64,000 bases of DNA, taken from Thermodesulfobium acidiphilum. GTDB lineage: Bacteria > Thermodesulfobiota > Thermodesulfobiia > Thermodesulfobiales > Thermodesulfobiaceae. Under the pieces are notes generated by a model, which was not told the origin of the DNA, searched no databases, and worked only from the letters and a program-made list of their open reading frames with translations. The stretch covers positions 980,916-1,044,915 of the forward strand of contig NZ_CP020921.1 of the NCBI RefSeq assembly GCF_003057965.1, in the 5' to 3' direction. Below are positions 18,059 to 37,882 of this stretch, piece after piece. Every line of letters begins with the position of its first letter. Positions within the stretch are counted from its first letter, which is position 1. The position numbers were made by a program, and so were the translations under genes.

Positions 18059-18101
18059 AACAAGAATAATATAATTCAAAACTGCATTATAAGGCACTAT
18101 A

Positions 18102-19268: not shown

Positions 19269-19276
19269 ATACCCTC

Positions 19277-21318: not shown

Positions 21319-21322
21319 AGAT

Positions 21323-22324
21323 TTATAAATCTCCTTTCAACTTTAACGAATGTCCTTTATCCTTTGATATCTGGAGTTCTGCCTTTTTTATAACTGATTC
21401 TGCCTCTTCTATATCAACATAACGCTTTGCCGGTGCACATTGAAATTCGAACTCAACCTTTTCCTCCCTACTTTTTGGAAACGGATTACAATTAGGCATT
21501 AAGACATTGCATCCACCCAGCAAGAAACAAAGAAGTTGACCGTTTTCAGGTTTAAGTGTTGCCACAGTGTTTGCTGCTGCTATGTGTGTATTTTTGGTAA
21601 CGATACGTGTCAGTGCAAAAACTCTCAGCATAAGATCAAAGCTCCCCGCAGGATAACTTTTTAGTGGCGTTTGAGGATGTGGGATAAAGGGCCCAATATT
21701 AATCATATCAGGTTGAAAGTCCTGAAAGAAGATAATATCATCAGCCAGATCGTCGATGGTTTGAAATGGTAATCCTACGATATTCCCAGCTCCTACTTGA
21801 AAACCTATCTTCCTTAAAAACTCCAAGGCATTTAACCTGTCTTTAAGCTTTTTGCCTGGTCGCATCCTTTCGTAAAGCTTTTCATTCATCGTTTCATGTT
21901 TCATTAGATACCTATCAGCGCCAGCATCTCTAAAAGCTCTGTAATCATCATAATCTCTTTCTCCAAGGCTAAGAGTAATAGCTACATCGTGTTTTTCTTT
22001 AATCCTTTTAATAATGTTACACACTTTTTCTCTTGTATAAAAAGGATCCTCTCCAGATTGTAAAACTACAGTTTTTATACCCTTTTGGGCGATCTCACAA
22101 CCTAGACAAACTATTGTATCTTCATCCATACGGAATCGTTCCATTTCTTTGTTACTCTTTCTTAACCCACAATAAAGATCATCACATATACAATAATTAG
22201 AAAAGTGAACAACACCCCTTATATGAGCTCTATTGCCACAGTACTTTTTTCTAACTTTTACTGCTTCTGTGAATATATCATTACTGTTTTGTACTAACAA
22301 TTCGATAACTTCTTCTCTGTTTAT
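21323..22324 (-). CDS. hydE: HydE-like radical SAM protein with atypical cluster motif (start either ATA 22324 or TTG 22300)
   Basis: [39 protein letters not shown] and [10 protein letters not shown]; adjacent to hydF. Confidence 0.75.
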
Positions 22325-23580
22325 AATGTTTTCAACCTCTTTCTTTCATTTTTAAACGCCATCAGTGCAGCAGGAAATGGATCAAGAGTTCTTTTTAAAA
22401 CCCCCTGCAGAAAAGATATAGCTATACCATAATTTGTTATTGGAACTTTAGCCTCTCTTGCTATCTGTATTCGTGAAAGCATCTCTCTTCTATTGAGGAC
22501 ACATCCTGCGCAATGAATAACTAGCTTATAACTTGAAAGGTTATCAGGGTAATCTCTCCCAGAATAAACATCTATTTGTAAATCTCCTCCTACATATTGT
22601 CTAAGCCACCTCGGAATTTTCACACGACCAATATCATCTTCTATTGGATGATGGGTGCATGCTTCAGCTACCAAAATCTTATCCCCAGGTTGAAGTGCAT
22701 CAATATAGGCTGCTCCCTTCGCCTGCTCTATTAGATCCCCTTTGTAGCGGGAAAAGAGTATCGAAAACGTCGTAGCCTTCACATCCTCTGGTGTATCAGC
22801 AACCATCTTTAAAACAACCTGAGAATCACAAATAACTATATCAGGTTTTTTGTTTAACGTTGATATGGCATGGGATAACTCCCTCTCTTTTACAATTAAA
22901 GCCATTGCATCGTTATCAAGCGTATCCCTTATCGTTTGGACCTGTGGAAGTATAAGTCTTCCCTTTGGTGCCTCAAGATCAATGGGTACAACCAATATGG
23001 CTAAGCCTCCAGGTGATAGCAAATCGCCTATCAAAGTAGGTGGCTGCAAGAAATCAACCGGGCAAACATCTATGATCTGTTTTTTTAGCGCACTTATATA
23101 TGAATCCTTGTTTATCCTATCTACACTTGAAACAGAAATTATATGCTCATTAAAAATCGATTTAAGACTATTAACAAAATTAATGGATGGTTTCATCAAA
23201 TCAATTTTATTGATTATTGCTACTATTGGAATATTCCTTTTTTTAACTTCCTCTAAAACGTGTTCTTCGTAATCAGTCCACTCGTTTGGTTCTAATAAAA
23301 GAAGAACAATATCTGCTCTATTTAAGACATTATATGTTTTCTCAATTCTCAAAGTTCCTAAAACAGATCTGTCATCAAGACCCGCAGTATCCAAAAAAAT
23401 AACTGGCCCTATTGGCAAAAGTTCCATAGCTTTTTGAACAACATCCGTTGTTGTGCCCGGAACAGGAGAGGTAATAGCGAGGTCTTGCCCTATAACCATG
23501 TTTAGAAATGAAGACTTTCCAACATTTGTCCTTCCAAAAAGCGCAATATGTAAACGATTTCCACTCGGTGTCTTATTCAT
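22321..23580 (-). CDS. hydF: [FeFe]-hydrogenase maturation GTPase HydF
   Basis: GRTNVGKS, DTAG, NKID, PKGRLILPQVQ, EACTHH and HCAGC motifs. Confidence 0.96.
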   Translation of the reverse strand: MNKTPSGNRLHIALFGRTNVGKSSFLNMVIGQDLAITSPVPGTTTDVVQKAMELLPIGPVIFLDTAGLDDRSVLGTLRIEKTYNVLNRADIVLLLLEPNEWTDYEEHVLEEVKKRNIPIVAIINKIDLMKPSINFVNSLKSIFNEHIISVSSVDRINKDSYISALKKQIIDVCPVDFLQPPTLIGDLLSPGGLAILVVPIDLEAPKGRLILPQVQTIRDTLDNDAMALIVKERELSHAISTLNKKPDIVICDSQVVLKMVADTPEDVKATTFSILFSRYKGDLIEQAKGAAYIDALQPGDKILVAEACTHHPIEDDIGRVKIPRWLRQYVGGDLQIDVYSGRDYPDNLSSYKLVIHCAGCVLNRREMLSRIQIAREAKVPITNYGIAISFLQGVLKRTLDPFPAALMAFKNERKRLKTL

Positions 23581-24943
23581 CCCTATACCCTAACGATGTC
23601 AGGTTGTAAGGTGAAAGCATTCTATCAACCACTTCCTTCCCTTGCTTTTCATTCAGAAAAGCTCTAAAATCAGTTTTTCCTTTTTTGAGAAATTCCTTTA
23701 TCAAATTCTCGGCTTCTTTATAGCCTATAACTGGTAGAAGAGCTGTAACAATTGTCAGACTTTTATCTATATACTCTTTACATTTTTCTTCATTAGCCTT
23801 TATTTCTAAAACGTGTTCGCAGAGATTGATATCTAAATTTGTAAGGATTTCAAGCGATTCAAGTATGGCAAATGCAAGCAATGGGATAAACTCACATATC
23901 TGAAGCGTTGACCTACTTACAGTTTCAGTTATTAAAAAATCATTTGCCATTACCTTTAGTCCTACTTGCATAGCTGCTTCACAAAGCACAGGATTTACCT
24001 TTCCTGGCATAATAGAAGAACCAGTTTGAACGGCTGAAAGTTCTATCTCGCCTAATAAGTTTAAAAGTCTCAAGTCATTAAATATCTTAACTATGTTTGA
24101 TGCATGTGCCTTTAAGATACCCGACACCTCAACAAAAGGATCTGCATTTGCAGTTTCGGCCGGCACATTTTCACCTCTTGAAAGTCCAAGTCCCGTTATT
24201 TCTCTAAGTTTTTCGATAACAAGAAAAATGTAATTTTTCGGAGCAGTAAGACCAGTGCCAACAGCCGTACCTCCCAAATTCGTTACTCTTAAACGCTCTT
24301 CGCATTTAAAAGTTCTCCATCTATCTCTTGAAATAGCTTCCGCAAAAGCTCCAAATTCAGCCCCCAAAGTTATTGGAACTGCTTCTTGAAGTTCTGTCCG
24401 TCCGATCTTTACTATACCCGCAAATGCCTTTTCTTTTTTTTGGAATGCACCTTGAAGTTTTGCAACAGCATTGCTTAATTCACGTAATTTAAAAATGGAA
24501 GCAACTTTAACTGCTGTGGGATAAACGTCATTTGTCGATTGATGAAGATTAACATCGTGTATTGGATGTACAACATTATAGTCACCTTTCTTGCTCCCAA
24601 GAATTTCAATAGCCCTGTTAGCGATAACTTCGTTAATATTCATGTTTGTAGATGTTCCCGCTCCCCCCTGAAGTGCATCAAGCGGGAATTGATCATCGAA
24701 TCTTCCTTCGCATATCTCGTCGCAAGCAATCTCAATAGCCTTAGCCTTGTTCTCATCCAGAAAGCCAAGTTCATGATTTGCCATACAACAGGCCTTCTTA
24801 ACCATTGAGAGTGCTCGTATTAAAGCTTTTGGAACCTTATAATTGCTAAATCTAAAATTTCTCCTTGCTCTTTCGGTATGAAGGCCCCAATAAACATTAT
24901 CCGAAATATCAATTTTACCTAAAAGATCGCTTTCAATACGCAT
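23573..24943 (-). CDS. aspA: Aspartate ammonia-lyase (fumarase/aspartase family)
   Basis: QGGAGTSTNMN, QSTND and GSSIMPGKVNP; ATG at 24943 follows GAAAGGAA. Confidence 0.9.
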   Translation of the reverse strand: MRIESDLLGKIDISDNVYWGLHTERARRNFRFSNYKVPKALIRALSMVKKACCMANHELGFLDENKAKAIEIACDEICEGRFDDQFPLDALQGGAGTSTNMNINEVIANRAIEILGSKKGDYNVVHPIHDVNLHQSTNDVYPTAVKVASIFKLRELSNAVAKLQGAFQKKEKAFAGIVKIGRTELQEAVPITLGAEFGAFAEAISRDRWRTFKCEERLRVTNLGGTAVGTGLTAPKNYIFLVIEKLREITGLGLSRGENVPAETANADPFVEVSGILKAHASNIVKIFNDLRLLNLLGEIELSAVQTGSSIMPGKVNPVLCEAAMQVGLKVMANDFLITETVSRSTLQICEFIPLLAFAILESLEILTNLDINLCEHVLEIKANEEKCKEYIDKSLTIVTALLPVIGYKEAENLIKEFLKKGKTDFRAFLNEKQGKEVVDRMLSPYNLTSLGYRDE

Positions 24944-24966
24944 ATAATTTCCTTTCAAAAAATGAA

Positions 24967-25008
24967 GGGCTTAATAAGCCCAAACAGCATGGGCTTAATA
25001 AGCCCAAA
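24967..25008 (-). terminator. Tandem identical hairpins followed by a U-rich tract (terminator/attenuator or stabiliser)
   Basis: GGGCTTAATAAGCCCAAA at 24967-24984 and 24991-25008; TTCATTTTTT follows on the minus strand. Confidence 0.6.
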
Positions 25009-25024
25009 AACCTCAGTTCAAATT

Positions 25025-25696
25025 TTACGTTGTTTTCTCTACTTTTTCTAATTCTTTTTCAACCCACTTTGGATTATGGTGCTTTAAAACTTTTAAAGGC
25101 ATATCTCCTTCACCCCATTTCCACATAGCTTTAAAATCTTCAAAGTTGATTATCGAAAGCGGGAGATGAATAAATATAACCAACAAGGTTACAACGACCC
25201 CTAGCCATACATGCCACGTAAAAAGTAAGCTCGTAAAATCCCTTGGCATAGCTTCCCTATAGAGATAGAGTAACCACCCAGATAAACCTTCAAATACAAT
25301 TGAGAACACAAACAGGATATATGCAAGCTTTTGACCTGCGTTGTACTTTCCAACAGGAGCAGTTTCCTCAGGTCCAAATGGAATACCAAACTTCCTTGGA
25401 TAACCACCAAGATTTTTGAACCATCTAAAGTCATCCATATCCCATCTGAAAAGCTCATCTAGCATAAGATAAAACCTATCTGGGTTTATGAAAACAAATG
25501 CAAGGAAATTGAATGTAAAAATTACAGCAGCAATAACATGAATATCCATAAGGAAGCCACCCGCCGCCGTTGTTTTATCTACCAGATGGAAATAAACAAG
25601 GCTACCCGTTATTATAAGGATAAACCATGTAACAGCATTGGTATTGTGAAATACCTTTTCTGAAATTGGAAAACGAAGTGCTCTTTCATCATCCAA
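25025..25696 (-). CDS. Cytochrome b membrane anchor of the periplasmic [FeFe]-hydrogenase (FdnI/HydC type)
   Basis: Four TM helices with His ligands and GKYNAGQK motif. Confidence 0.88.
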   Translation of the reverse strand: MDDERALRFPISEKVFHNTNAVTWFILIITGSLVYFHLVDKTTAAGGFLMDIHVIAAVIFTFNFLAFVFINPDRFYLMLDELFRWDMDDFRWFKNLGGYPRKFGIPFGPEETAPVGKYNAGQKLAYILFVFSIVFEGLSGWLLYLYREAMPRDFTSLLFTWHVWLGVVVTLLVIFIHLPLSIINFEDFKAMWKWGEGDMPLKVLKHHNPKWVEKELEKVEKTT

Positions 25697-26048
25697 CGTT
25701 ATGCCCTCCTCTTAGAATAAGATTTGTCCTGCTATAGTAATCTGTATGAAGAAGTTCTTCTGCAATCTTGCTTAATGGATGTTCCGCAAACTCACTATAA
25801 AACATCTTTACAGCAGGATTTTGATCTGATACAGCAAGACCTTTTTCCTGTAGTCTTGCATCATCTTTATACAATCCAGCCTGTCTCATTTTCATATAAT
25901 TATTTCTATTTTCGAATACGTCAGTTATTTTATAACCCGCTATAGCTATAGCAGCAATTATTATTCCAGTTACTTTTAAAAACCCTCTTCTACTTATAAT
26001 AGCAGCAACTGGTTTTTCCCGGTAATCATAAGGAATTTTTTCACTCAT
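25689..26048 (-). CDS. hydB: [FeFe]-hydrogenase small subunit with Tat signal
   Basis: SRRGFLK, RQAGLYKDD, NPAV...FY and LLHTDY motifs. Confidence 0.9.
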   Translation of the reverse strand: MSEKIPYDYREKPVAAIISRRGFLKVTGIIIAAIAIAGYKITDVFENRNNYMKMRQAGLYKDDARLQEKGLAVSDQNPAVKMFYSEFAEHPLSKIAEELLHTDYYSRTNLILRGGHNVG

Positions 26049-26074
26049 ACTTTCCTCCTATCAAACATTTTTTC

Positions 26075-27424
26075 TTAAACCTTAAGGCGTAGGGGTAATA
26101 ATGGGTCAATCCACGATGTTCCCATTGGTTGAACAGGTTGCCCACCGCCATTAATACATCCACCAGGACAATTCATCACCTCTATAATATCGTACGGCGA
26201 CTGTCCACTAAGAACATCCTTAACAACTTTATCAAGATGGTTTTTTATACCGTTTACAGTTGCTGTTCTCACTGTAATAGTTTTTCCATCCTTAAGCGGA
26301 AGAGTAATAGTAGCTTCTTTAACTCCATACTTTGTATAACCTCTAACTGCATATATGTCCCAACTTGGAGGATTTTTCCCTGAAACCACCTGGTATGCAT
26401 ATCTCAACGCCGCTTCCATAACACCGCCGCTATTTCCAAATATCGTTGCACCACCCGTATACATTTCTGTTATCTTCTCCTCCGCCTCTTCAGGCATCTC
26501 AAGCGGGTTTATACCTTTTCTTCTAAATACTTCAGCAAGATCTCTTGTTGTAAGAACAGCATCTATATCAGGAAACTTCGGCGTATTATCAGGTATAATC
26601 TTTTTCTCCCTTAAAAACTTCCATGCAGCATGAAATTCAGGCCTGCTTGCTTCAAAAATTTTTGCAGTACAAGGCATTATACCTACCGTATAAACCTTCA
26701 CCGGATCAACTTTCCAGATGTTTAATGCTGCCCATGTCTTTGCCGAAGGACCAGCCATAAGCATAGGAGATCTTGCACCCGATATATGTGGTAAAAGGGC
26801 AGCATAGTTAATCTCTGCATATCTTACCCATGCAGGACAGCAGGATGTAAAGTGTGGAAAGGGATGTTTTCCAAATTCTTCCAATTCTTTACTTCTTTCA
26901 CCCAACACCCAATAACGGATTTTCCCTACTATTTCACCACCTTCTTCCAAAATCGTCTGGTCAGCCGCAAGATTATTTTCGTAAACCTTAAAACCTGCCT
27001 TCTTCATTGCACTATGAAGTTTTTTAACTGTGAGTGTTCCTGGAGGTGCACCAAATTCTTCAGCAATAGCAACTCTTACAGCCGGTGCAGGTATTCCCAC
27101 AACTACCACTTTAGGATCATTTAACTTTCCCATTACTTCATCAACAAAACTCATTTGTTCAATAGCTCCGAATGGACAATTGATAAGACACTGACCACAT
27201 GCAATGCACTTATCCAAGTCGATCTTGTGTGCAACCCCAATTTCACCCATCATAGCATCAGCTGGACAATTCTCTCTACATGTGTCACATCCAACACATT
27301 TATCCTGGTTCACACGTATAATTCCTCTTAATTCCCCTGGGTTATATGTACCCTGAGGCTCTGATCCGCTCACTCTGGCATCAGGTGGCGGTAGAAAAGT
27401 TCCCACTTTCATTACATTTCCCAT
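26075..27424 (-). CDS. hydA: [FeFe]-hydrogenase large subunit (2x[4Fe-4S] + H-cluster), periplasmic type
   Basis: Two CxxCxxCxxxCP motifs; TSCCPAW, MPCTAK and EVMNCPGGCINGGGQP. Confidence 0.95.
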   Translation of the reverse strand: MGNVMKVGTFLPPPDARVSGSEPQGTYNPGELRGIIRVNQDKCVGCDTCRENCPADAMMGEIGVAHKIDLDKCIACGQCLINCPFGAIEQMSFVDEVMGKLNDPKVVVVGIPAPAVRVAIAEEFGAPPGTLTVKKLHSAMKKAGFKVYENNLAADQTILEEGGEIVGKIRYWVLGERSKELEEFGKHPFPHFTSCCPAWVRYAEINYAALLPHISGARSPMLMAGPSAKTWAALNIWKVDPVKVYTVGIMPCTAKIFEASRPEFHAAWKFLREKKIIPDNTPKFPDIDAVLTTRDLAEVFRRKGINPLEMPEEAEEKITEMYTGGATIFGNSGGVMEAALRYAYQVVSGKNPPSWDIYAVRGYTKYGVKEATITLPLKDGKTITVRTATVNGIKNHLDKVVKDVLSGQSPYDIIEVMNCPGGCINGGGQPVQPMGTSWIDPLLPLRLKV

Positions 27425-27681
27425 ATAATTACACCCCTTATTAAAGTCTTCAAGAATTCATAACTATACTCAATCTAAATCTCTTAGCTATCCTTCTTTA
27501 TGAATATTCGGGTAAACACCATTTAAAACACCTATATAGATAGTTAAACATCCTTTCTAGCAATGAATAACCACCTTTCCTAAATAGAACCTCCACTGGT
27601 TCAATCCTCATTTAATTATTTATAATTTTTAAACCCCACGCTTATTAGAAATCTTTAGCCTACTTTCTCTAACCTCTTGTT

Positions 27682-29454
27682 CTAGTTATTTTTGCCTCTC
27701 GGAATGTAATGAGTATGGAGCAATTGATGAGACTTATGCCCAAGAGGTTCTCCCAGGAATTCTTTATAAATCGCTTGAATTTCAGGATTTTCATGGCTCT
27801 TTCTAATAGGTAATTTTTTATCTCTTTCATAAATCCCATTTATACGAAGTTCTCTCTCTTCAACAGTCGTTGGAATTGGTTGACCTCCTCCACCAATACA
27901 TCCACCTGGACATGCCATTATTTCTATAAAGTGATAGTCTTTAAGTTCCCCAGCCCTTACTTTATCCATAAGCTGCCTTGCTAAACCAAGAGAATGAGCA
28001 ACGAGAACTTTTACTGTAATTCCATTCATATTTACAGAAGCTTCTTTAATTCCTTTCATTCCTCTTATATCTTCAAAATCAAGTTTTGGAAGAGTTTTAC
28101 CCGTAACAACTTCATAAGCTGTTCTTAATGCTGCTTCCATAACTCCACCTGTCGCTCCAAAAATCTGGGCAGCACCCGTTCCTTCACCCATAATAGGATC
28201 ATATTTCTCATCTGGAAGATTTGCAAAATCTATCCCTGCTTCACGAATCATTCTTATAAGCTCTCTTGAGGTAAGAACAACGTCTACGTCTCTTGAGATC
28301 CCGGGGTTATTCCAATATTTCGCTGCAGAATTCATTTCCGGACGGGCTGCTTCGTATTTCTTTGCTGTACATGGCATAACAGAAACAACAAAAATATTTT
28401 CTGGATTTATTTTCTTTTTTTCAGCATAAAAGGTTTTTGCAATTGGCCCAAACATCTGCTGGGGAGACTTACAAGAAGAGATGTGAGGAAGTAGATCAGG
28501 ATAAAACTCTTCTGCAAATTTTATCCATCCAGGTGAGCAGGATGTGGTTTGTGGCAGAACTCCATTATTTTTTATTCTATGAATAAGTTCATACCCTTCT
28601 TCCATAATTGTTAGGTCTGCAGCCCAGTTTGTATCAAAAACTGCATCAAACCCAAGCCGCCTAAGTGCTGCTACCATTTTTCCAGTAATGTCTGTTCCAA
28701 CAGGCAGCCCAAAAGCCTCTCCTATTGTTACATGAGTAGAAGGTGCTGTCTGAGCAACTACATGTTTACTTGGATCGGCAATTGCTTCCCACACTTTCCA
28801 TGTGTCATCTCTTTCAACTATGGCACCAGTAGGACACACTAGGGCACATTGACCACAGTTAACGCACTGAGTTTCAATAAGTGGTATGCCACCTTTTGGC
28901 CTTACAACAGCATCAAAACCATTTCCATAAAGCTCCAGAGCATCAACTGTTTGTAAAACCTTACAAGCAGTTATACATCTTTGACAGAGTATACATTTAT
29001 TTGGATTTCTTATTATTGACGGAGATGAATCGTCAATAGGCAATGATTTCATTTCACCCTGAGGTCTTATCGCCCTTACATTAAGTTCAGCACACAGACT
29101 TTGCAGTTCACAAATTCCATTTTTAGGACATGTTGTACAGTCGAGATGATGGTCGCTTAACAACATTTCAAGGTTAAGTTTTCTTGCTGCAAGTACTTTG
29201 GGAGTATTTGTTTTTATAACCATTCCATTTTCTGCAGGAGTATTGCAGGAAGACACAAAATCTGGTTTCCCGTCTACTTCTACAACACACACACGACAAG
29301 AACCTATATCATGTTTAATACCTTTAAGACCTACATCTTTGAGATAACAAAGTGTTGGAATTTTAACATTTGCTTTCTTAGCAGCCTCTAAAATTGTAGT
29401 CCCTTCCGGAACTGTTACCTCTCGCCCATCAATTATTACCCTTATATCTGACAT
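27682..29454 (-). CDS. Cytoplasmic [FeFe]-hydrogenase catalytic subunit ([2Fe-2S], His-[4Fe-4S], 2x[4Fe-4S], H-cluster; HndD/HydA type)
   Basis: PTLCY...CRVCVV, HHLDCTTC, TSCSPGW, MPCTAKKYE and EIMACPGGCIGGGGQP motifs. Confidence 0.95.
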   Translation of the reverse strand: MSDIRVIIDGREVTVPEGTTILEAAKKANVKIPTLCYLKDVGLKGIKHDIGSCRVCVVEVDGKPDFVSSCNTPAENGMVIKTNTPKVLAARKLNLEMLLSDHHLDCTTCPKNGICELQSLCAELNVRAIRPQGEMKSLPIDDSSPSIIRNPNKCILCQRCITACKVLQTVDALELYGNGFDAVVRPKGGIPLIETQCVNCGQCALVCPTGAIVERDDTWKVWEAIADPSKHVVAQTAPSTHVTIGEAFGLPVGTDITGKMVAALRRLGFDAVFDTNWAADLTIMEEGYELIHRIKNNGVLPQTTSCSPGWIKFAEEFYPDLLPHISSCKSPQQMFGPIAKTFYAEKKKINPENIFVVSVMPCTAKKYEAARPEMNSAAKYWNNPGISRDVDVVLTSRELIRMIREAGIDFANLPDEKYDPIMGEGTGAAQIFGATGGVMEAALRTAYEVVTGKTLPKLDFEDIRGMKGIKEASVNMNGITVKVLVAHSLGLARQLMDKVRAGELKDYHFIEIMACPGGCIGGGGQPIPTTVEERELRINGIYERDKKLPIRKSHENPEIQAIYKEFLGEPLGHKSHQLLHTHYIPRGKNN

Positions 29455-29472
29455 CTTTTAACCTCCATAAAA

Positions 29473-30300
29473 TTATCTGAGCATTACTACTTGCTGCCAA
29501 CCCATATTGGCTGGAATACTACAGGCACAGCTTCCTTTTATGCGTGATTCTATATCGTCGTTACAAAATTCAAGAGTATATCTAACTAACTTTCCAGCCA
29601 TTTTCCCCAAATCACATCTGCTTGAAGTCTCAATATCTGTGGCTAAATTTTTAAGGAATGATATCTCTGAATCTGAAATTGAACCATCAAAAACTTTTTG
29701 GACTATTTCTTGCATTCTTTTTGTACCAATCCTGCAAGGAGTACATTCGCCACATGAATTTTTCTGAGTATAATCAAGGAAAAACTGAACCATATCGACC
29801 ATACATCGATCTTTTTCCCAAAAAAGCTTTCCTGCTGAACCAACTGCAGCAATCATTTTTGTCAGATCTCGCCAATCGAAATTTGAAGGCGCTTTTAAGG
29901 AAAGAGGACCAAGCTGTTTGATGTGTTCAACAAAATCCTTTGCAACGCGAGAAAATTTTAGCCCCTCGGCACCCGAAATCCATTCAAGCCTTATTCTTTC
30001 TTTTGGAATTCCTATAACCTCTAGGAATCTTGTTAGTAGATTAAATCTTCTGTGAGCATAATAATTTCCTGTACGATAGTGACAATCCCCCGGATGGCAC
30101 CCTGAAACTAGAACCCCATCAGCACCGGATAAAAAAGCTTCTACAACGAATTCAGGTTCAACTCTTCCGGAGCACGGTACTCGAATAGCATACACATTGG
30201 GAGGATAGTCATATCTTAACGAACCTGCCAGATCGCATCCCGCATAGCTACACCAATTACATAAAAAAGCAATGATTTTAGGCTCAAAGCTTTCCTCCAT
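29473..30300 (-). CDS. MvhD (hydrogenase delta, [2Fe-2S]) domain fused to a NuoF/HydB-type [4Fe-4S] domain
   Basis: FLCNWCSY, RVPCSGRV, GCHPGDCHY and WISGAEG, then CMVD...SCGECTPCRIG...SRCDLG. Confidence 0.88.
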   Translation of the reverse strand: MEESFEPKIIAFLCNWCSYAGCDLAGSLRYDYPPNVYAIRVPCSGRVEPEFVVEAFLSGADGVLVSGCHPGDCHYRTGNYYAHRRFNLLTRFLEVIGIPKERIRLEWISGAEGLKFSRVAKDFVEHIKQLGPLSLKAPSNFDWRDLTKMIAAVGSAGKLFWEKDRCMVDMVQFFLDYTQKNSCGECTPCRIGTKRMQEIVQKVFDGSISDSEISFLKNLATDIETSSRCDLGKMAGKLVRYTLEFCNDDIESRIKGSCACSIPANMGWQQVVMLR

Positions 30301-30321
30301 AGCAAAACCTCCTCAGTATTT

Positions 30322-30409
30322 TGTGTTTGGCTTTCTTAGCTTGACGCCAGCCTTCTGTGGCTCAATACTTTTGTGTGTTTGGCTTTCTTAGCTTGACGCC
30401 AGCCTTCTG
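30322..30409 (-). repeat. Perfect 36-bp direct repeat (two copies) in the 5' leader of the hydrogenase cluster
   Basis: TGTGTTTGGCTTTCTTAGCTTGACGCCAGCCTTCTG at 30322-30357 and 30374-30409. Confidence 0.95.
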
Positions 30410-30482
30410 ACGGGCAGTTTTGCGTGAGGTTTTTTAAATAAAAAGGCTTCAGCCTTTTAACTTTCTTAATAAGTTTTTATAA

Positions 30483-30511
30483 AGTATATATAAACCTTTT
30501 ATTTTTGTCAA
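30483..30511 (-). promoter_or_regulatory. Sigma70 promoter of the hydrogenase cluster
   Basis: TTGACA (30511-30506), 17-nt spacer, TATACT (30488-30483). Confidence 0.75.
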
Positions 30512-30530
30512 TATTTCGAATTGCTTCATC

Positions 30531-30582
30531 AAAAATCTAAATGAAATACAATCGTTGCCTCAAATAAAAAATCTAAATGAAA
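30531..30582. repeat. 16-bp direct repeat upstream of the -35 box, possible regulator sites
   Basis: AAAAATCTAAATGAAA at 30531-30546 and 30567-30582. Confidence 0.55.
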
Positions 30583-30609
30583 ATAAAAAGTCTCTTAGAA
30601 TAGTAGTTA

Positions 30610-30977
30610 CTATAACTCTGTAAGCCGTTCACCGATCCTACCTTGCGTTTTTTCTATAAAACAGACATTGCAAATATTTTTATCTTTACCCAATTTGTTT
30701 GATTCAAACACTAATCTTTGTCTGCATACCTGACAATCACCTTTTGCTCTCCTACTCTCGGATTTAACTAAGCATATATCAGTTTCTTTTTTTACTCCAA
30801 TCTGCTTTTAAAAAATTTTCTTTAGCATTTTCAAAAAGATAAGATAGATTCATAAGTTCTCTTGAAGCCTTAGTAAGAAAGATAGTAGGATATTCATATT
30901 CTAAGAGATTTTTAATCGTATCATCTGTTTCTCTTGCTTTATCCCTATACCATTGGATTTGCTGAAGCTTATATCCT
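30610..30977 (-). pseudogene. Internal fragment of a Cas10/Csx11-like type III CRISPR subunit
   Basis: Hand translation: ...EYEYPTIFLTKASRELMNLSYLFENAKENFLKADWSKK, frameshift in an A7 run, then ETDICL...GDCQVCRQRL...NICNVCFIEKTQGRI (Zn finger); abuts the cas6 fragment. Confidence 0.5.
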
Positions 30978-30981
30978 TAAG

Positions 30982-31200
30982 TTATAACATATGTTTTTTT
31001 ATTAAATGCCTCCTTTCCAATATTTCAGAAAATGAAAAAAGCCTAAATTTCCTTTTTTCGAATTTGAACCCCTCATCATGTAATTTTTTTGCATCTATAT
31101 AATCTAATAAATTATAAATTAAACCCTGGACCAGAGAATTATATCCTGAGCGAAGTTTTATCGCACTATCAAAAATAAACTCTAACTTTATCCTCACCAC
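30982..31200 (-). pseudogene. cas6: Truncated cas6 (N-terminal 72 aa)
   Basis: YNSLVQGLIY...LHDEGFKFEKRKFRLFSFS is the Cas6 N-terminal signature; no C-terminal G-rich loop. Confidence 0.85.
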
Positions 31201-31536
31201 AATCCCCTTAATTTTTTTTTACTATCAAATCATATTAATGCGAATACGTAAAATTAAAATTAGAACTGACTTGTTAGATTAAAGCTATTTTATCTCATTA
31301 AATTTAAACTAAAAAAGCAACTCTAGTAATCCTTTTTATATAAGATTAAGTCAATCATTAAATTTTACTTATAAAAACCACATTAGCACAAAATAAGTTT
31401 TTTATTTTATTTATAGTATCCCTAATTTATATAAATTTTATTTCTTATCAAAAAACCACCTAAAGTATTAAAATATTAAATATGTATAATATTATGTAAA
31501 CAAATAAACAAACAAGGAGTTAGGTGAGTTCAAGAT

Positions 31537-32349
31537 ATGTATATTCCATTTATAATATTTAATAGTATTATTGTTTTTTTCTTATCTATGATAGTTGCAA
31601 TTATAGGCAATATCGTAGGTATTGGAGGCGGCGTCATGTTGCTACCCTTTTTTATTTTTTATCTGCACTTAAATTCTGTAGTTGCTAGCGGATTAAGCCT
31701 TTTTACAATTGTAATAAGCACTATTGGTGGCACGTTTGCTTTCATAAAACAAAAAACAATTAATTATAAATTGTTTATAACAATAGTTAGTTTAATAGTT
31801 CCTGGTGTAATAATAGGTTCTATTGCTAATAAATTTGTAAATACACATGAATTCAGGGAAATTTTGCCTCTTTGGATAATAGCAATAGGAACTTTCTCTT
31901 TAATTACTGCCAAACAACAAACATTAAAAAATACGAAAGAATTCGAAAATGCCTCAGTAAAGCACAGGAGGCTTACAAGAATAGTATCCTTGATCTCGGG
32001 TTTTGTTTCAGGTTTTTTTGGCGTTGGTATAGGTGGAATAATGGGAACTTATTTAGTGGCAGTAGAAAAAATTTCTGCAAGAATAGCCTTCTCAACAATG
32101 ATTATGGTAATGACAATCACATCATTATTTGGCTTTTTTGTTCATTTTGAAAGTGCAGGATTAAATTTGTCATTGTGGATTACATATTTAATTCCTTTAA
32201 CTCTGGGCGCAATTTTAGGTTCACAAATAGGCGCATATATTTCCAAAGCTTCAAATGTAAAAGCTCTTAGACTCTATCAGGGTTACATAATACTGTTTTT
32301 AGGGATTTCTTTACTCATAGTTAACATATTAAATTTTATAAAAATTTGA
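31537..32349 (+). CDS. TauE/SafE-family sulfite exporter
   Basis: Duplicated GIGGG / GVGIGG motifs; about 8 TM helices. Confidence 0.85.
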   Translation: MYIPFIIFNSIIVFFLSMIVAIIGNIVGIGGGVMLLPFFIFYLHLNSVVASGLSLFTIVISTIGGTFAFIKQKTINYKLFITIVSLIVPGVIIGSIANKFVNTHEFREILPLWIIAIGTFSLITAKQQTLKNTKEFENASVKHRRLTRIVSLISGFVSGFFGVGIGGIMGTYLVAVEKISARIAFSTMIMVMTITSLFGFFVHFESAGLNLSLWITYLIPLTLGAILGSQIGAYISKASNVKALRLYQGYIILFLGISLLIVNILNFIKI

Positions 32350-32420
32350 TTTCTTAGATAAGAATTAAAAACTTACATCCATAGTATATTAAAGAGCATT
32401 TAATATATTATATTTAACAA

Positions 32421-32452
32421 AAACCCACTATTAGAAAGTTAATAGTGGGTTT
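32421..32452. terminator. Bidirectional intrinsic terminator between convergent tauE-like and csp genes
   Basis: AAACCCACTATTA-N6-TAATAGTGGGTTT. Confidence 0.8.
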
Positions 32453-32466
32453 AATTTTAAGAAATA

Positions 32467-32679
32467 TTACAGAGCTTTGACGTTTACTGCTCTTAACTTT
32501 TTTGAGTTTTTAGGATCTTTTTCTATATCGAAAGTAACCTGCTGACCTTCGTTAAGAGATTTAAATCCATCAGAAACTATTGCAGAAAAGTGAACAAATA
32601 CATCTTCTCCTCCATTTGCATTAGAGATAAAACCATATCCCTTTTCTGCGTTGAACCACTTCACCGTACCCTTATTCAT
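32467..32679 (-). CDS. Cold-shock protein
   Basis: [15 protein letters not shown] and DVFVHFSAI (RNP1/RNP2). Confidence 0.97.
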
Positions 32680-32723
32680 CTTGACCTCCTAAGAAATAAT
32701 ACATCTTTATAAAACTAAAAACC

Positions 32724-32829
32724 CACATATTTTTGTAGCCATAATGCAAAAAAAACTTACAAAAATATGTGAGCTTATTTAGCATTTATAAAGTAGCTTT
32801 ACAATACCACTAAAAATTAGTCTTGTCAA
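32724..32829 (-). promoter_or_regulatory. csp promoter and structured 5' UTR
   Basis: TTGACA (32829-32824), 17 nt, TG-extended TATTGT (32806-32801); 14-bp inverted repeat at 32724-32737 / 32758-32771. Confidence 0.6.
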
Positions 32830-35338
32830 TAGGCAAAATTTTATTATTAGTTATTATAAAATCCTCAAAATCAGCCTGGGGAAGTGGTTTTGAAAATAAA
32901 AATCCTTGAAAATAGTCACACCCAATATTTCTTAGTATTTCAAATTGTTCTATGGTCTCTACACCCTCAGCTATTGTTTTTATGTTTAATTTTTTAGCAA
33001 GAAAGATTATTGCTTCTACAACTTTTTTCGTACATTCGTCAAGAATATTTCTTACAAAAGATATATCAATTTTAATATAACTTATATTTAACTTCGAAAT
33101 GTATGAAAGAGAAGAGAACCCTGTACCAAAATCATCCAGCATAAAATGGATATCGATGTTTAACAACTTTTCTATTAAATCCTTTGTATACTCTAAATCT
33201 TCCAAAAAAATTCTTTCAATAATCTCAATTCTCAATAAATTTGGATCTATATTAAATTTTCCAATCTTCATATACAAAATATCAATAATATTTTCTCTTT
33301 TTAAAGTTTTATAAGAAAAATTTACAGAAAGTGGAACTTTAACTCCCTTTAAAACAAGCCTCGAAATAATCTGCAAAGCTATATCAAGAATGTATTCTTC
33401 TACATAAACTATCATGTTAGTGTTTTCAAGATAAGGAATAAATTTCATAGGAAGAATTACTTCATTCTTTTTCTTCCATCGAAGCAGGCCTTCTGCTCCT
33501 ACAATGTTAAAATTTTTGTCTACATAGGGTTGACAATACAATACAAATTCTTTTTTTGAGATAGCATCTTCAAGGCCGCTCCTAAAAATAAGCATTTCTT
33601 TGGCTCTTAAACTAAGATCGTTTCTAAAAAAGCCAATACAATTTTCGCCTTTTTGTCTTGCATCTAAAAGTGCTGTTAAAGCTTTATTAACTAATTGATC
33701 TGCACTATCACCATCTTTGGGGTAGATGGTTATTCCAATATTAAAGGATACTGAAATTAACTGATTGTTATCCACAAAATAACTTTTTATAAGAACATCT
33801 AATAGTTCATAAGAGAGATTTAAAATATCCTCTTCAGATTTTTTATTTTTTACAAAAACTGCAAATTTATCAGATTCAAACTTGGCTATTATAGCATCAG
33901 GTCCAAAAAAAGATCTCAATCTCTGTGCAATTTGGATTAATATCATGTTGCCATTATCAAACCCAAAGGCCTGGTTAATAATTGTAAAATTTAATGGATT
34001 TATTTTTATAACAGCTAAAATTGGCTTTTCAGGTAAGGATTTTTTTATAAACGAATCAACTTCAGAATAAAATGAAATTCTGTTTAAAAAACCTGTCAAA
34101 TTGTCAAAATAATTTCCTGAAATATCTTTTCCTAACAATACATATTTTTGCTTCTTATCACTCATCGTTACAGAAAAAATTATTATATCAAGATAAAACA
34201 AAGACTCGTCTTTCCTTTTACCTACCAAATTAGAGTGAAAGATAGAACCCTTTTTTAAAATTTTAAACATATTATCAAAAAAATCAGTTCCATCATACTT
34301 TGACTGAAATACTCTTATATCATTGCCAATAAGTTCATCCTTAGAAAAACCTGTAATTTTTAATAGTGCCTCATTTGCAAACTGAATATGCCCACTTTCA
34401 TCCATAACAAGAAAACATTCATGTGTTTTTTCGCTGGCTTTCTGAAGCAAAATTAAGTTATTCTGATATTCTATCCTTTCTAAAGCAAAAGAGATGTCAT
34501 TTTTTACCTCTTCTAAAAGTTCTACAACCTCTTTCGAGCTAGATAATTTCATAGAATCATAAATCATAAATAAGTATTTAACTTTATTATCTTTCAGTAT
34601 GGGTACAGAACAAATTGAGTACGTATTGAATTCCTTGTAATATTCATGCCAATAGCTCAGAGTTTTGCTATTCATTACGTCAGATAAAACAACAACTTTC
34701 TTAGTATAATATGCTTTTGCTATTGACCCCTTACCATATGGTGCATCTGGATCAATACCCATATTTAAGTTTTCAAAAGCTAACTTTTGATCCTTTGACT
34801 TTGATTCTATAAACTTAGGTTTAAATCTCTTGCTTTCCTCATCAATAAACCCAATGCTTGCAAGAGTAAACCCTACATCGTTTACAAGAATTTCACATAT
34901 GGTCTTCAACAAAACATCTTCATTCTCTTCCCTTATAATTAGTTGGTTAATTTGTTTTAGTGTATAAAAAAGCTTTTCGATTGACTTTTCTCTTGTTCTA
35001 TCTAGAACTATCACAAGATAAGAAAGCTTTTCTTTATAAAGAATTTGATATGTAGATGTTTGTACTGGAACTAAGCCATTTTTACACTTATAATAACGAT
35101 ATTCAATCTCTTCGTAAAAATAATTATTGCTTAAACTTTTCTTTGAAAATTCATTCATATACTCCCTATCTTCAGCAAAAAAGTCTGAAAAGTTCATTTT
35201 AACAAGATCTTTTGTATCATACCCTACTATTTGAGAAAATTTATCGTTAACAAAAACTATTTTTCCACCTTCTTGATGAATACATATACCAAATATTTTT
35301 GAATTAATAAAATTATTCAAAAAGCTATCATCTATCAT
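32810..35338 (-). CDS. PAS-GAF-PAS-GGDEF(degenerate)-EAL protein, probable c-di-GMP phosphodiesterase
   Basis: GGDEF replaced by ESDKF; EGLLRW, DDFGTGFSS, KID and AEGVET intact. Confidence 0.88.
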   Translation of the reverse strand: MIDDSFLNNFINSKIFGICIHQEGGKIVFVNDKFSQIVGYDTKDLVKMNFSDFFAEDREYMNEFSKKSLSNNYFYEEIEYRYYKCKNGLVPVQTSTYQILYKEKLSYLVIVLDRTREKSIEKLFYTLKQINQLIIREENEDVLLKTICEILVNDVGFTLASIGFIDEESKRFKPKFIESKSKDQKLAFENLNMGIDPDAPYGKGSIAKAYYTKKVVVLSDVMNSKTLSYWHEYYKEFNTYSICSVPILKDNKVKYLFMIYDSMKLSSSKEVVELLEEVKNDISFALERIEYQNNLILLQKASEKTHECFLVMDESGHIQFANEALLKITGFSKDELIGNDIRVFQSKYDGTDFFDNMFKILKKGSIFHSNLVGKRKDESLFYLDIIIFSVTMSDKKQKYVLLGKDISGNYFDNLTGFLNRISFYSEVDSFIKKSLPEKPILAVIKINPLNFTIINQAFGFDNGNMILIQIAQRLRSFFGPDAIIAKFESDKFAVFVKNKKSEEDILNLSYELLDVLIKSYFVDNNQLISVSFNIGITIYPKDGDSADQLVNKALTALLDARQKGENCIGFFRNDLSLRAKEMLIFRSGLEDAISKKEFVLYCQPYVDKNFNIVGAEGLLRWKKKNEVILPMKFIPYLENTNMIVYVEEYILDIALQIISRLVLKGVKVPLSVNFSYKTLKRENIIDILYMKIGKFNIDPNLLRIEIIERIFLEDLEYTKDLIEKLLNIDIHFMLDDFGTGFSSLSYISKLNISYIKIDISFVRNILDECTKKVVEAIIFLAKKLNIKTIAEGVETIEQFEILRNIGCDYFQGFLFSKPLPQADFEDFIITNNKILPIDKTNF

Positions 35339-35576
35339 TTTTTACCCTCGTTTCAAGTAGTATTTGAAATAAAATTTTCTTAAAATATTATTTGTTTATT
35401 TTATATCAAATTAATATTTTCATAATTATTAAAGTCTGCTGGAAATCAATTGATTATAAAATGAACGTCATTGCAAAAGATTTTTTAATTAACATTAAGA
35501 AGTAAGTTAGAAAAAATATTAAACTAATTTTATATTAGCTGTATAATAAAATTAATACCAAAGGAGGTGTAAAAAA

Positions 35577-35768
35577 ATGAAACAAAATGAAGGCACAATA
35601 GACAGAATCATAAGATTTATTTTAGGACTTGTTCTTATTTATTTAGGTTTTTTAATGCAATTCAATACAGTTGGTATTATTTCAACTATTATTGGAATCG
35701 TTCTCCTCTTTACAGCAGTCACAGGATATTGCGCACTTTACAGCATTTTAAAAATTTCTACAAAATGA
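35577..35768 (+). CDS. DUF2892 (YgaP-like) small membrane protein
   Basis: NEGTIDRIIR and TGYCALY...IST motifs; AGGAGG RBS. Confidence 0.85.
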   Translation: MKQNEGTIDRIIRFILGLVLIYLGFLMQFNTVGIISTIIGIVLLFTAVTGYCALYSILKISTK

Positions 35769-35792
35769 CTGCTACTCTTACTTTTGATTATT

Positions 35793-35821
35793 TTGCTTTA
35801 TTAAGTAAAAAGTGTTATAAT
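35793..35821 (+). promoter_or_regulatory. Sigma70 promoter for rnpB
   Basis: TTGCTT, 17 nt, TG-extended TATAAT. Confidence 0.65.
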
Positions 35822-35846
35822 TAATTTGTTAAACTTAAGTCAATTC

Positions 35847-36195
35847 AAACAGGACAGGCGCGCAACTTACAAGCTAACTGCTTGAGGAAAGTCCGAGCTC
35901 CTCTGGGCAGGATGCTGGTTAACTGCCAGAGAGGGAAACCTCTGGATAGGGCCACAGAAAAAAACTACTATCCTTTGATAGTACAGGTGAAAAGGCGAGG
36001 TAAAAGCTCACCGGCAGAAGAGCGATCTTCTGGCCCGGCAACCCCCATCCGGAGCAAGGCCAAATAGGGAAGGAGATAGCCCAGGTCGTTATTACTTCCG
36101 GGTAGGCCGCAAGAGGCTAAGGGAAACCTTAGTCCCAGATAAATGGTTGCGATCCTTTTTAGGATACAGAACTCGGCTTATAGCCTGTCCTGTTT
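35847..36195 (+). ncRNA. rnpB: RNase P RNA
   Basis: GAGGAAAGTCC, GCCACAGAAA, GGTGAAA...GGTAAAAGC, GAGCAAG and ACAGAACTCGGCTTAT conserved regions; P1 pairing AAACAGGACAGGC / GCCTGTCCTGTTT. Confidence 0.95.
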
Positions 36196-36624
36196 TTTAG
36201 AGTTGTTTAAATTGTAAAAAATTAATAATAAAATTCCAATATCTATATACACATCTGACAAATTAAAAACGGGCAAGATATGAATATCTATAAAATCAAT
36301 TACCTGATGAGAACCTAAAACCCTATCCAGTAAATTGCTAGATACTCCAGCAATCAAAAAAGACAAAGAAATCCTAAGATTCGGAGATTTAAACCATAAA
36401 ATTATGCAAGATAGTAAAAAAATAGATCCTACAAATATAAAAAAATATGTCTGGCCACTAAAAATCCCCCACGCCCCCCCTAAATTTTTTACCAGGGTAA
36501 AGTGTATAAAAAAGAAGTCACAGCTTCTTACTGACAAAATCTTTACAGCAAAAAATTTTGTTAATCTGTCAAACGAAAAAAGAAATAAAGTTAAAGCTAT
36601 ATAAAAAAAGCCCTTTAAATTCAA
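36178..36624 (-). CDS. lspA: Lipoprotein signal peptidase II
   Basis: NLGGAWG, NLLDR, VIDFI and FNLSD motifs. Confidence 0.9.
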   Translation of the reverse strand: MNLKGFFYIALTLFLFSFDRLTKFFAVKILSVRSCDFFFIHFTLVKNLGGAWGIFSGQTYFFIFVGSIFLLSCIILWFKSPNLRISLSFLIAGVSSNLLDRVLGSHQVIDFIDIHILPVFNLSDVYIDIGILLLIFYNLNNSKKQDRL

Positions 36625-36646
36625 TTTTTTAGTTGTCTTAATTAAA

Positions 36647-37882
36647 TTACCAGGATTTCATATACTTTTTTTGCTCGTCACTTAAGGAGTCGATGCTTGT
36701 ACCCATTGATTCAATCTTTAATCTGGCTATTTCCCTGTCAATTTCTATTGGCACAGGATAAACTCCTATTTCTATTTTGTTGTTCAATAAATAAAGTGCA
36801 CTCAAAAATTGATTTGCAAAGCTCATATCCATTACACTTGAGGGATGCCCTTCAGCAGCTGCAAGATTTACAAGCCTGCCTTCTCCAATCAAAAATACTC
36901 TTTTCCCGTCTTTTAAAGTATACTCATCCAGTTCATGTCTGATTCTTCTCTTTGAAACTTTTTGTTCTTCCATTTTATCTACTTCAATTTCAACATTAAA
37001 GTGACCTGAATTCGCCAATATTGCCCCATCTTTCATCTTTAAGATATGATCAAATCTAATAACGTTGCAATTACCTGTAACAGTAATGAATATATCTCCT
37101 ATTTTTGCAGCCTCATCCATTGGCATAACATCAAAACCATCCATTATTGCCTCAAGAGCCCTTACAGGTTCAACTTCGGTTACTATTACCCTTGCACCCA
37201 TTCCTTTAGCCCTCATGCTCACGCCTTTTCCACACCAGCCGTAACCTGCAACCACTACTCTTTTTCCGGCAAATAAGATGTTGGTAGCCCTAATAATACC
37301 ATCCAGAGTACTTTGACCCGTTCCATATCTGTTGTCAAAAAAGTGTTTCGTCATTGCGTTATTCACAGCTATAAAAGGAAATTTTAACAATTTTTCTTTA
37401 TGAAGAGCTTCAATTCTATGAACGCCTGTGGTAGTTTCTTCGCAACCTCCAACTACCTTATCTGCAAGCCTCGGATACTCTTTATGCAGGGTAACAGTTA
37501 AATCAGCTCCATCATCAATTGTTAGATCTGGCTCAGACTCAATACATGTTCTAATATTATTCCAGTAACTTTTAGAATCTTCCCCTCGTTGTGCAAAAAC
37601 AAAAATTCCTTCTCTTGCAAGGTATGCTGCCACCTCATCGCTAGTGCTGAGAGGATTTGATGCACACAGATATATTTGTGCACCTGCATCTCTAAAAGTT
37701 GTTATTAAATTTGCAGTTTCGGTAGTTACGTGTAAACACGCAGCAATTTTTTTCCCGCTAAAGGGTTTTATATCTTTATATTTTTTTCTAAGAATAGCGA
37801 GAACTGGCATCTCACGATATGACCATTCAACCTTTTTTGCACCTTCATCTGCTAAGCCAATGTCTTTAATTTGATAGTTCAT
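36647..37882 (-). CDS. ahcY: Adenosylhomocysteinase
   Basis: CLHVTTET, EETTTG, FDNRYGTGQS and GHPSSVMDMSF motifs. Confidence 0.97.
   Translation of the reverse strand: MNYQIKDIGLADEGAKKVEWSYREMPVLAILRKKYKDIKPFSGKKIAACLHVTTETANLITTFRDAGAQIYLCASNPLSTSDEVAAYLAREGIFVFAQRGEDSKSYWNNIRTCIESEPDLTIDDGADLTVTLHKEYPRLADKVVGGCEETTTGVHRIEALHKEKLLKFPFIAVNNAMTKHFFDNRYGTGQSTLDGIIRATNILFAGKRVVVAGYGWCGKGVSMRAKGMGARVIVTEVEPVRALEAIMDGFDVMPMDEAAKIGDIFITVTGNCNVIRFDHILKMKDGAILANSGHFNVEIEVDKMEEQKVSKRRIRHELDEYTLKDGKRVFLIGEGRLVNLAAAEGHPSSVMDMSFANQFLSALYLLNNKIEIGVYPVPIEIDREIARLKIESMGTSIDSLSDEQKKYMKSW

Follow-up and report, generated by a model that had tools for sequence, protein, structure and literature searches.

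MvhD-type subunits are the port through which several electron donors reach the flavoprotein HdrA. In the H2:heterodisulfide oxidoreductase MvhAGD–HdrABC of methanogens and many sulfate reducers (5ODC and 5ODH), a canonical MvhD stands between a [NiFe] hydrogenase and HdrA. Donors other than Mvh reach HdrA through an MvhD-type subunit in Fdh–MvhD–HdrABC (7BKB) and in Elp–Hdr (8RVU), where that subunit is a separate MvhD-related protein (8rvu_F). In the passages of PMC6085437 that cite Costa et al., the MvhD site on Hdr is described as shared by, or contested between, distinct donor modules, Mvh and Fdh. The HydABC (Bfu) enzymes (7Q4V, 8A6T and 7P5H) are built differently, with an [FeFe] hydrogenase subunit, HydA, alongside HydC and a HydB that comprises a flavin mononucleotide (FMN)/NADH domain, N- and C-terminal cluster domains and a four-helix [4Fe-4S] domain. 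Here we analyse a 64,000-nucleotide stretch of the Thermodesulfobium acidiphilum chromosome (NZ_CP020921.1, positions 980,916 to 1,044,915; the window), in which one gene joins an MvhD domain to the four-helix domain of HydB and directly precedes an [FeFe] hydrogenase gene, hydA. We propose, with a probability of roughly 60% given the sequence comparisons and complex modelling, that the two products together make a hydrogenase module of the [FeFe] type without flavin, and that this module binds HdrABC, serving there as an alternative to [NiFe] Mvh.

The fusion gene occupies 29473..30300 on the reverse strand, starts with ATG and encodes 275 amino acids. Its open reading frame and Pfam matches bear out the original prediction, made from the DNA letters, of a protein consisting of MvhD plus only the C-terminal [4Fe-4S] domain of NuoF/HydB. 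The MvhD/FlpD domain spans residues 9–131 (29908..30276, reverse strand) and is recovered by Pfam, profile search, Foldseek and the complex model; PF02662 is matched over profile positions 1–123 of 123 with an E value of 2.4e-52 and 176.6 bits, against a curated cut-off of 22.3. Homology to HydB begins at about residue 139, and the four-helix [4Fe-4S] domain at residues 169–252 (29545..29796, reverse strand; Pfam and profile search) matches NADH_4Fe-4S (PF10589) over profile positions 1–84 of 85 (E 2.6e-22, 78.9 bits). The FMN/NADH domain Complex1_51K (PF01512) is absent from the 275-residue protein by Pfam. Five cysteines of the MvhD part (C14, C17, C43, C68 and C73), putative cluster ligands, and four of the HydB part (C183, C186, C189 and C229, in a CxxCxxC...C arrangement) are invariant in 32 of 32 family members, and the AlphaFold 2 model of the protein has a mean predicted local distance difference test score (pLDDT) of 88.2 and a predicted template modelling score of 0.86. 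The MvhD domain, with its probable [2Fe-2S] site, is the proposed HdrA-docking part, and the whole protein is probably the small subunit of a cytoplasmic [FeFe] hydrogenase.

Both halves of the fusion have close counterparts in solved complexes. The N-terminal half of a family profile matches MvhD of Mvh–Hdr (5odc_D, E 1.3e-63) together with 8rvu_F of Elp–Hdr and 7bkb_F of Fdh–Hdr (E 1e-60 to 1e-63), and Foldseek with the MvhD part retrieves 8rvu_F, 5odh_D, 5odc_D and 7bkb_F at template modelling (TM) scores, normalized to the target, of 0.87–0.94 (TM 0.89 for 5odc_D), root-mean-square deviations (rmsd) of 1.3–1.6 Å and 53–56% identity. From about residue 139 onwards the profile matches residues 413–537 of HydB from Acetobacterium woodii (7q4v_B, E 5.9e-31) and, at about 1e-16, NuoF of complex I; in Foldseek the MvhD chains are followed by HydB and NuoF chains (7p5h_B, rmsd 2.0 Å over 97 columns). 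The section of PMC10021017 on A. woodii HydB describes a loop, residues 530–542, that runs from the four-helix bundle to the C-terminal ferredoxin domain. Because the match ends at residue 537, within this loop, what the fusion retains of HydB is exactly the four-helix [4Fe-4S] part and no more. In contrast to HydABC, the FMN/NADH domain, the N- and C-terminal cluster domains of HydB and HydC are all missing here; in contrast to MvhAGD–HdrABC, a HydB-type [4Fe-4S] domain, covalently joined to MvhD, takes the place of MvhG, and the partner is an [FeFe] HydA instead of the [NiFe] MvhA. Neither Fdh–MvhD–HdrABC nor Elp–Hdr, whose donors oxidise formate or F420H2, has an [FeFe] donor or a fusion of MvhD to a HydB remnant.

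The hydA gene (27682..29454, reverse strand) starts with ATG and, as had been claimed, lies 18 nucleotides from the fusion gene; it is downstream on the same strand, behind a spacer that contains a GGAGG ribosome-binding site (29455..29472, reverse strand, read from the sequence). Pfam and structure matches identify its 590-residue product as a cytoplasmic [FeFe] hydrogenase of the M3 type from the HydABC (A3-like) lineage, with Fer2_4 [2Fe-2S], NuoG-type 4Fe-4S, two Fer4, H-cluster and small-subunit domains in Pfam. Its best solved matches are HydA1 of A. woodii (7q4v_A, E 1.8e-195, 654 bits) and HydA of Thermoanaerobacter kivui HydABC (8a6t_A, E 2.3e-192), whereas the monomeric enzyme CpI scores about 1e-144 (486–489 bits). 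By these best solved matches, as distinct from a tree, HydA is closest to HydA1 of bifurcating HydABC, in the A3 lineage. It also shares the L1 motif TSCSPGW with 7q4v_A. CpI and T. kivui HydA1 read TSCCP at this motif; the serine is present in 19 of 21 HydAs that follow a fusion gene, the other two reading TSCCP (loci L143–L146 left out).

The rest of the genome, one contig of 1.77 Mb that is 99.99% complete, offers HydA no other partner of HydB descent. As originally stated, no hydB or hydC gene adjoins the pair, and genome-wide PF10589 has exactly one match, the fusion gene, with no match in the whole genome to PF01512 (NuoF FMN/NADH) or to PF01257 (NuoE/HydC). A HydABC-type enzyme thus cannot be assembled, and with the BfuBC core gone from both gene and genome, bifurcation of the Bfu type is impossible; the fusion is the sole HydB-derived protein available to HydA. 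The presence of sat, aprBA and qmoABC marks the organism as a sulfate reducer. Besides that of the fusion (window 29473-30300, reverse strand), the genome encodes three further MvhD domains. One, of 138 residues, belongs to the operon hdrA (678 residues)–ferredoxin–hdrC–hdrB–mvhD–mvhG–mvhA–protease (locus L008), about 280 kb from the fusion gene; another is the C-terminal domain of QmoB; and the fourth, of 131 residues, heads a cluster encoding an 861-residue GltD/NfnB-like, a 574-residue HdrA-like, an HdrC-like and an HdrB-like protein. The genome therefore does not lack an HdrA-like protein, an outcome that had been named as fatal to the idea of an adaptor: it holds the canonical hdr–mvh operon, the second HdrA-like cluster and QmoABC. 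The HdrA of the genome shares 99% identity with a protein that carries the NCBI name Thermodesulfobium narugense.

Several comparisons point to HdrA as the docking partner. The MvhD domain of the fusion is 62% identical (84/135) to the Hdr-linked MvhD of the same genome and only 27% identical to each of the others, the QmoB domain (37/135) and the other free MvhD; by sequence it is a canonical Hdr-type MvhD. At 41 predicted HdrA-contact positions, 73% of its residues (30/41) are identical to those of the genome's own Hdr-linked MvhD, compared with 57% (54/94) at the other 94 positions. A complex model of HdrA with residues 1–140 of the fusion, built from alignments of 41 rows for HdrA and 32 rows for the fusion, scored 0.88, and the best of three controls scored 0.00; the mark applied to this score is reached by 116 of 157 solved complexes and by 2 of 215 mismatched pairs. 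At least 97% of contacts are common to the runs, the pLDDT of the partner is at least 86, and the modelled contacts fall on the N-terminal domain of HdrA (79–131) and on its C-terminal ferredoxin domain (602–677).

The fusion also tends to occur where HdrA does. A canonical full-length HdrA is encoded in 23 of the 25 fusion-bearing genomes that we found. In the class of a Thermodesulfobacterium genome (G004), where HdrA was counted at E values up to 1e-120, it is present in 11 of 63 genomes, that is, in four of five with the fusion and 7 of 58 without it; among genomes of the class to which a Desulforudis genome (G005) belongs, HdrA occurs in 13 of 13 with the fusion versus 82 of 149 without. 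These counts cover related, non-independent genomes and are descriptive, not a test, which weighs against reading much into them, as does the frequency of HdrA in the class of the Desulforudis genome in any case (95/162).

Other observations also weigh against coupling to HdrABC. The complex model may have passed by memory of solved Mvh–Hdr complexes, and its result speaks to likeness, not binding. In none of the 21 loci compared does an hdr gene occur in the roughly 9 kb on either side of the fusion, and HdrABC of this genome is already provided with an MvhD and a [NiFe] Mvh by its own operon. Two fusion-bearing genomes lack a close orthologue of HdrA and offer only HdrA-like matches, in part incomplete, at 30–44% identity; one (G055) is a 1.4-Mb assembly, and in the other (G390) the fusion is cut at a contig end. 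The earlier idea of an adaptor to HdrA or QmoAB is thus upheld in part. An adaptor to HdrA fits the domain origins, contact residues, co-occurrence and complex model; QmoAB fares less well, and, with no locus placing the fusion beside hdr genes, physical coupling and bifurcation are things we infer.

In the mechanism we propose, the fusion and HydA would form a cytoplasmic, flavin-free pair in which HydB has been trimmed to its four-helix [4Fe-4S] domain and joined to MvhD. The H-cluster of HydA would split H2, and electrons would run through the accessory clusters of HydA to its N-terminal NuoG-like domain. From there they would pass, across a presumed contact with HydA, to the HydB-type [4Fe-4S] cluster of the fusion, as in HydABC, and then to the MvhD [2Fe-2S] cluster, at the point where HydABC would have FMN. 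MvhD would dock on HdrA as in Mvh–Hdr, Fdh–Hdr and Elp–Hdr, and the flavin adenine dinucleotide of HdrA would bifurcate electrons to ferredoxin and, via HdrBC, to an acceptor of the disulfide type. In sulfate reducers this may be DsrC, the candidate usually named for that role. Since the same genome has MvhDGA in its hdr operon, two alternative donors would be able to use one port, and the fusion–HydA pair would either compete with the [NiFe] Mvh module for HdrABC or take its place.

The fusion belongs to a genuine family, one that is narrow and rare. Both domains are present in 31 clusters (270–285 residues, 44–78% identity) of the 120 best homologues listed, the other 89 being plain MvhD; the named carriers are Thermodesulfobacterium commune, Desulfonauticus, Thermodesulfitimonas, Peptococcaceae, Desulforudis and Ammonifex, and the domain boundary is constant in 32 of 32 aligned sequences. 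Lineage searches with this 32-sequence family alignment found the full-length fusion in two of four genomes of the phylum of T. acidiphilum, in 5 of 63 of the class of the Thermodesulfobacterium genome, in 13 of 162 of the class of the Desulforudis genome and, with one cut at a contig end, in five of 301 genomes sampled from the phylum to which a Thermodesulfovibrionales genome belongs. A 401-genome sample of the phylum of a delta-proteobacterial metagenome-assembled genome (MAG) gave two fusions, both already counted in other lineages. Over four of the lineages searched, this makes 25 fusion-bearing genomes, most of them from relatives of thermophilic sulfate reducers. In a search of 1.84 billion representatives at 50% identity, one of the 150 best hits was a full-length match, and in a genome-collection scan with the family alignment plain MvhD dominated, the 80 loci retained including only one full-length fusion. 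Two longer tblastn matches (L030:9944-10759 and L025:5931-6665) were set aside as not belonging to the family: they encode MvhD proteins of 244–271 residues whose C-terminal extensions have no Pfam match, beside large HdrA-like genes, and come from a delta-proteobacterial MAG and a Sifarchaeum MAG.

Synteny was compared over about 9 kb on each side of the fusion in 20 further genomes which, with the window, make up the 21 loci. A hydA gene of 580–620 codons follows downstream on the same strand in 21 of 21. It directly adjoins the fusion in 16; in four a single small gene intervenes, NuoF_C-only in three and an open reading frame without a Pfam match in one; and in the remaining locus an insertion sequence with a Mutator-family transposase separates the two genes and hydA is truncated. 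In that genome (G038) the transposase gene, at L124:10162-11367, leaves a hydA of 490 residues, and the HdrA matches are also in pieces. Recurrent neighbours are HydE/G, HydF, an aspartase-like lyase, a TM1266-like protein, DUF3842 and a periplasmic-type HydA with its small subunit. In seven Firmicutes loci a second pair follows, consisting of a stand-alone NuoF_C-only protein and a second HydA of 580 residues. The stand-alone NuoF_C proteins (82–213 residues) matched PF10589 in nine of nine tested, including those between the fusion and the first HydA, and look like an unfused form of the HydB remnant.

Two Firmicutes fusions have an in-frame TGA at the position of the invariant Cys68, within G-C-H-P-G-D-C-H (L132:8996-9814 in G139 and L137:9052-9867 in G143), which probably encodes selenocysteine. 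Selenocysteine occurs in some MvhD/VhuD proteins.

The strongest competing account is a self-contained heterodimer, in which the fusion would extend the cluster chain of HydA by one [4Fe-4S] and one [2Fe-2S] cluster and exchange electrons with a soluble carrier, ferredoxin or similar, with no part for Hdr. We regard this as unlikely, with real points on its side. The lack of hdr genes near any of the 21 loci and the two genomes without a close HdrA orthologue agree with it, and so do the stand-alone NuoF_C proteins beside HydA genes, next to the second HydA in seven loci, where a minimal HydB remnant can apparently serve HydA without MvhD. An M3 HydA can meet ferredoxin through its own distal clusters. 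With HydA already reaching ferredoxin, a heterodimer of this kind leaves the added MvhD domain with no obvious role, and it does not sit well with the 62% identity of that domain to the Hdr-linked MvhD, the 73% at predicted HdrA contacts or the co-occurrence of the fusion with HdrA. In addition, all solved MvhD-type chains recovered come from entries titled as Hdr complexes.

It is less probable still that the adaptor docks HydA on a different HdrA-like flavoprotein, either that of the 574-residue HdrA-like cluster or QmoAB, which feeds APS (adenosine 5′-phosphosulfate) reductase. Both systems are encoded in the genome, and proteins of this HdrA-like kind are all that the genomes G055 and G390 have. 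Each of the two, however, comes with its own MvhD, encoded separately in one and as part of QmoB in the other, and both of these MvhD domains are only 27% identical to that of the fusion; set against the 62% identity to the Hdr-linked MvhD, this leaves the QmoAB alternative less supported.

A published reading of homologous genes would merge the pair with its neighbours. Directly beyond hydA, at 25025-27424 on the reverse strand, Pfam identifies a second [FeFe] hydrogenase with a 449-residue large subunit, a 119-residue small subunit and a cytochrome b. In the account of THEYE_A1725–A1728 of Thermodesulfovibrio yellowstonii by Frank et al. 2016 (PMC5165239), the genes are described as a four-subunit, probably periplasmic Fe-only hydrogenase, and the passages on them mention neither MvhD nor HydB domains. 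The synteny of the Nitrospirota loci L143–L146 suggests that these genes are apparently the same string of fusion, HydA, second HydA and twin-arginine translocation (Tat) small subunit. By that description the fusion, HydA, the 449-residue HydA, the Tat small subunit and cytochrome b would be one periplasmic enzyme, and the genes are indeed contiguous in the window and in nine other loci. We consider this very improbable. A twin-arginine motif, SRRGFLK, occurs only in the 119-residue small subunit, and the fusion and the 590-residue HydA start without one; the fetched stretch contains no second HydA of 440–470 residues in 10 of the 21 loci (one of which ends 400 bp past hydA), among them that of a congener (G001), whose second HydA is encoded on the other strand at a distance of about 9 kb; and all solved complexes recovered have their MvhD and HydB domains in the cytoplasm. 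We read the string instead as a cytoplasmic pair and a separate periplasmic, cytochrome-b-linked enzyme, the 449-residue HydA being probably the large subunit of this membrane-anchored hydrogenase. The L1 motif of the 449-residue HydA is TSCCPAW.

The notion that the fusion arose in one strain by a deletion joining mvhD to a full nuoF or hydB, or is a pseudogene of the two, suggested at most by public gene calls of 105–127 residues that could look like a broken gene, can be set aside with near certainty, because the frame is intact, the short calls are internal starts inside it, and the full-length family keeps one domain boundary and a fixed synteny to hydA across four phyla.

These calls reflect an annotation problem that the full-length reading corrects, since public records either name the gene only 'MvhD' or give the truncated protein. 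The short calls cover only the C-terminal part (window 29473-29856 and the relatives P0243-P0246), start at internal methionines and carry the name 'NADH-ubiquinone oxidoreductase-F iron-sulfur binding region domain-containing protein'; an uninterrupted frame spans the full 275–279 residues. A search with residues 140–275 among shorter proteins for split forms returned four, all internal-start calls within fusion genes, and found no true stand-alone close relative of the C-terminal part.

Distribution within the genus and identity levels bear on how the pair arrived. HydA is confined to the two fusion-carrying genomes of the genus; one congener (G003) has hdr–mvh and lacks the fusion. Another (G002) has no hdrA...mvhA cluster between conserved flanks (compared with L008:4034-12319), no fusion and no HydA. 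The fusion and HydA of the window are 75% and 89% identical, respectively, to those of a genome of the phylum Nitrospirota, versus 70% and 87% for the congener G001, and DNA identity to that congener is 72–77% in the hydrogenase island versus 86–89% in the hdr–mvh region. This pattern is compatible with cassette movement between lineages, and the fusion, hydA and maturase genes seem, on sequence comparison, to move as a cassette between thermophilic sulfate reducers of different phyla.

A further system for comparison is Bam–Bfu, the class II benzoyl-CoA reductase with BamB-I: in the sections of PMC9304861 that treat it, NuoEFG/Bfu-type subunits are combined with an HdrA-type module, but Bam retains a complete BfuABC with FMN and has no hydrogenase. 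In the literature searched, which included parts of reviews on bifurcating enzymes, multimeric [FeFe] hydrogenases, the Bfu family and archaeal [FeFe] hydrogenases and left Pereira 2011, Appel 2021, Poudel 2016 and supplements outside its scope, no description of an MvhD–NuoF/HydB fusion or of an Hdr-linked [FeFe] hydrogenase was found. What is new is the hybrid wiring, Hdr donor modules and HydABC each being already known. Domain comparison and modelling give about even odds that the pair represents an undescribed class of hydrogenase, an [FeFe] enzyme without the Bfu core, re-plugged by its adaptor into HdrABC as a nickel-independent counterpart of Mvh–Hdr.

If docking on HdrABC is correct, two of the four known electron-bifurcating families would be linked by a natural swap that pairs a Bfu-type catalytic subunit with an HdrA-type flavoprotein, and an [FeFe] entry would join Mvh, Fdh and Elp among the donors using the MvhD port of Hdr seen in solved complexes. 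It would also give a role to the 'extra' Fe-only hydrogenase of sulfate reducers that lack an NADH-linked partner for it, and would suggest a nickel-free route from H2 to reduced ferredoxin. A nickel-sparing role for the [FeFe] module, an idea prompted by the title and abstract of PMC12350162, is speculation. The family occurs in cultured organisms, among them T. commune and apparently Thermodesulfovibrio, Thermodesulfobium and Desulforudis, which makes the idea directly testable.

The leader of the operon contains two direct repeats of 39 nucleotides, 97% identical and by the repeat search 52 nucleotides apart (30319..30409, no strand assigned; copies at 30319-30357 and 30371-30409), which were missed by Tandem Repeats Finder. 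They lie upstream of the fusion start codon, between it and a promoter-like site, have no other copy in the genome at up to five mismatches and are not conserved in the leader of the congener; they may be a regulator binding site. The promoter-like site, TTGACA-17-TATACT, is the best sigma-70-like match upstream of the operon in a consensus scan (11/12 positions; 30483..30511, reverse strand), and is a weak one, such sites in the region being no more numerous than in shuffled sequence. An Rfam scan of 18000-37000 found nothing in the operon leader. Elsewhere in that interval it gave a class A bacterial RNase P RNA (35850-36196, forward strand, 274 bits) and a sub-threshold cspA-thermoregulator-like match (32422-32619, reverse strand).

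Beyond the second hydrogenase, maturation genes encoding an aspartase-like lyase, HydF and a HydE-like radical SAM protein occupy 21323..24958 on the reverse strand (Pfam), and the same maturation families flank the fusion–hydA pair in other phyla. Directly after the HydE-like gene, at 18102-21318 on the reverse strand, come a NifH-like gene and two genes resembling nitrogenase component 1 (NifD-like); the same NifH-like and component-1-like string is found in the congener G001 (L122:15475-18688).

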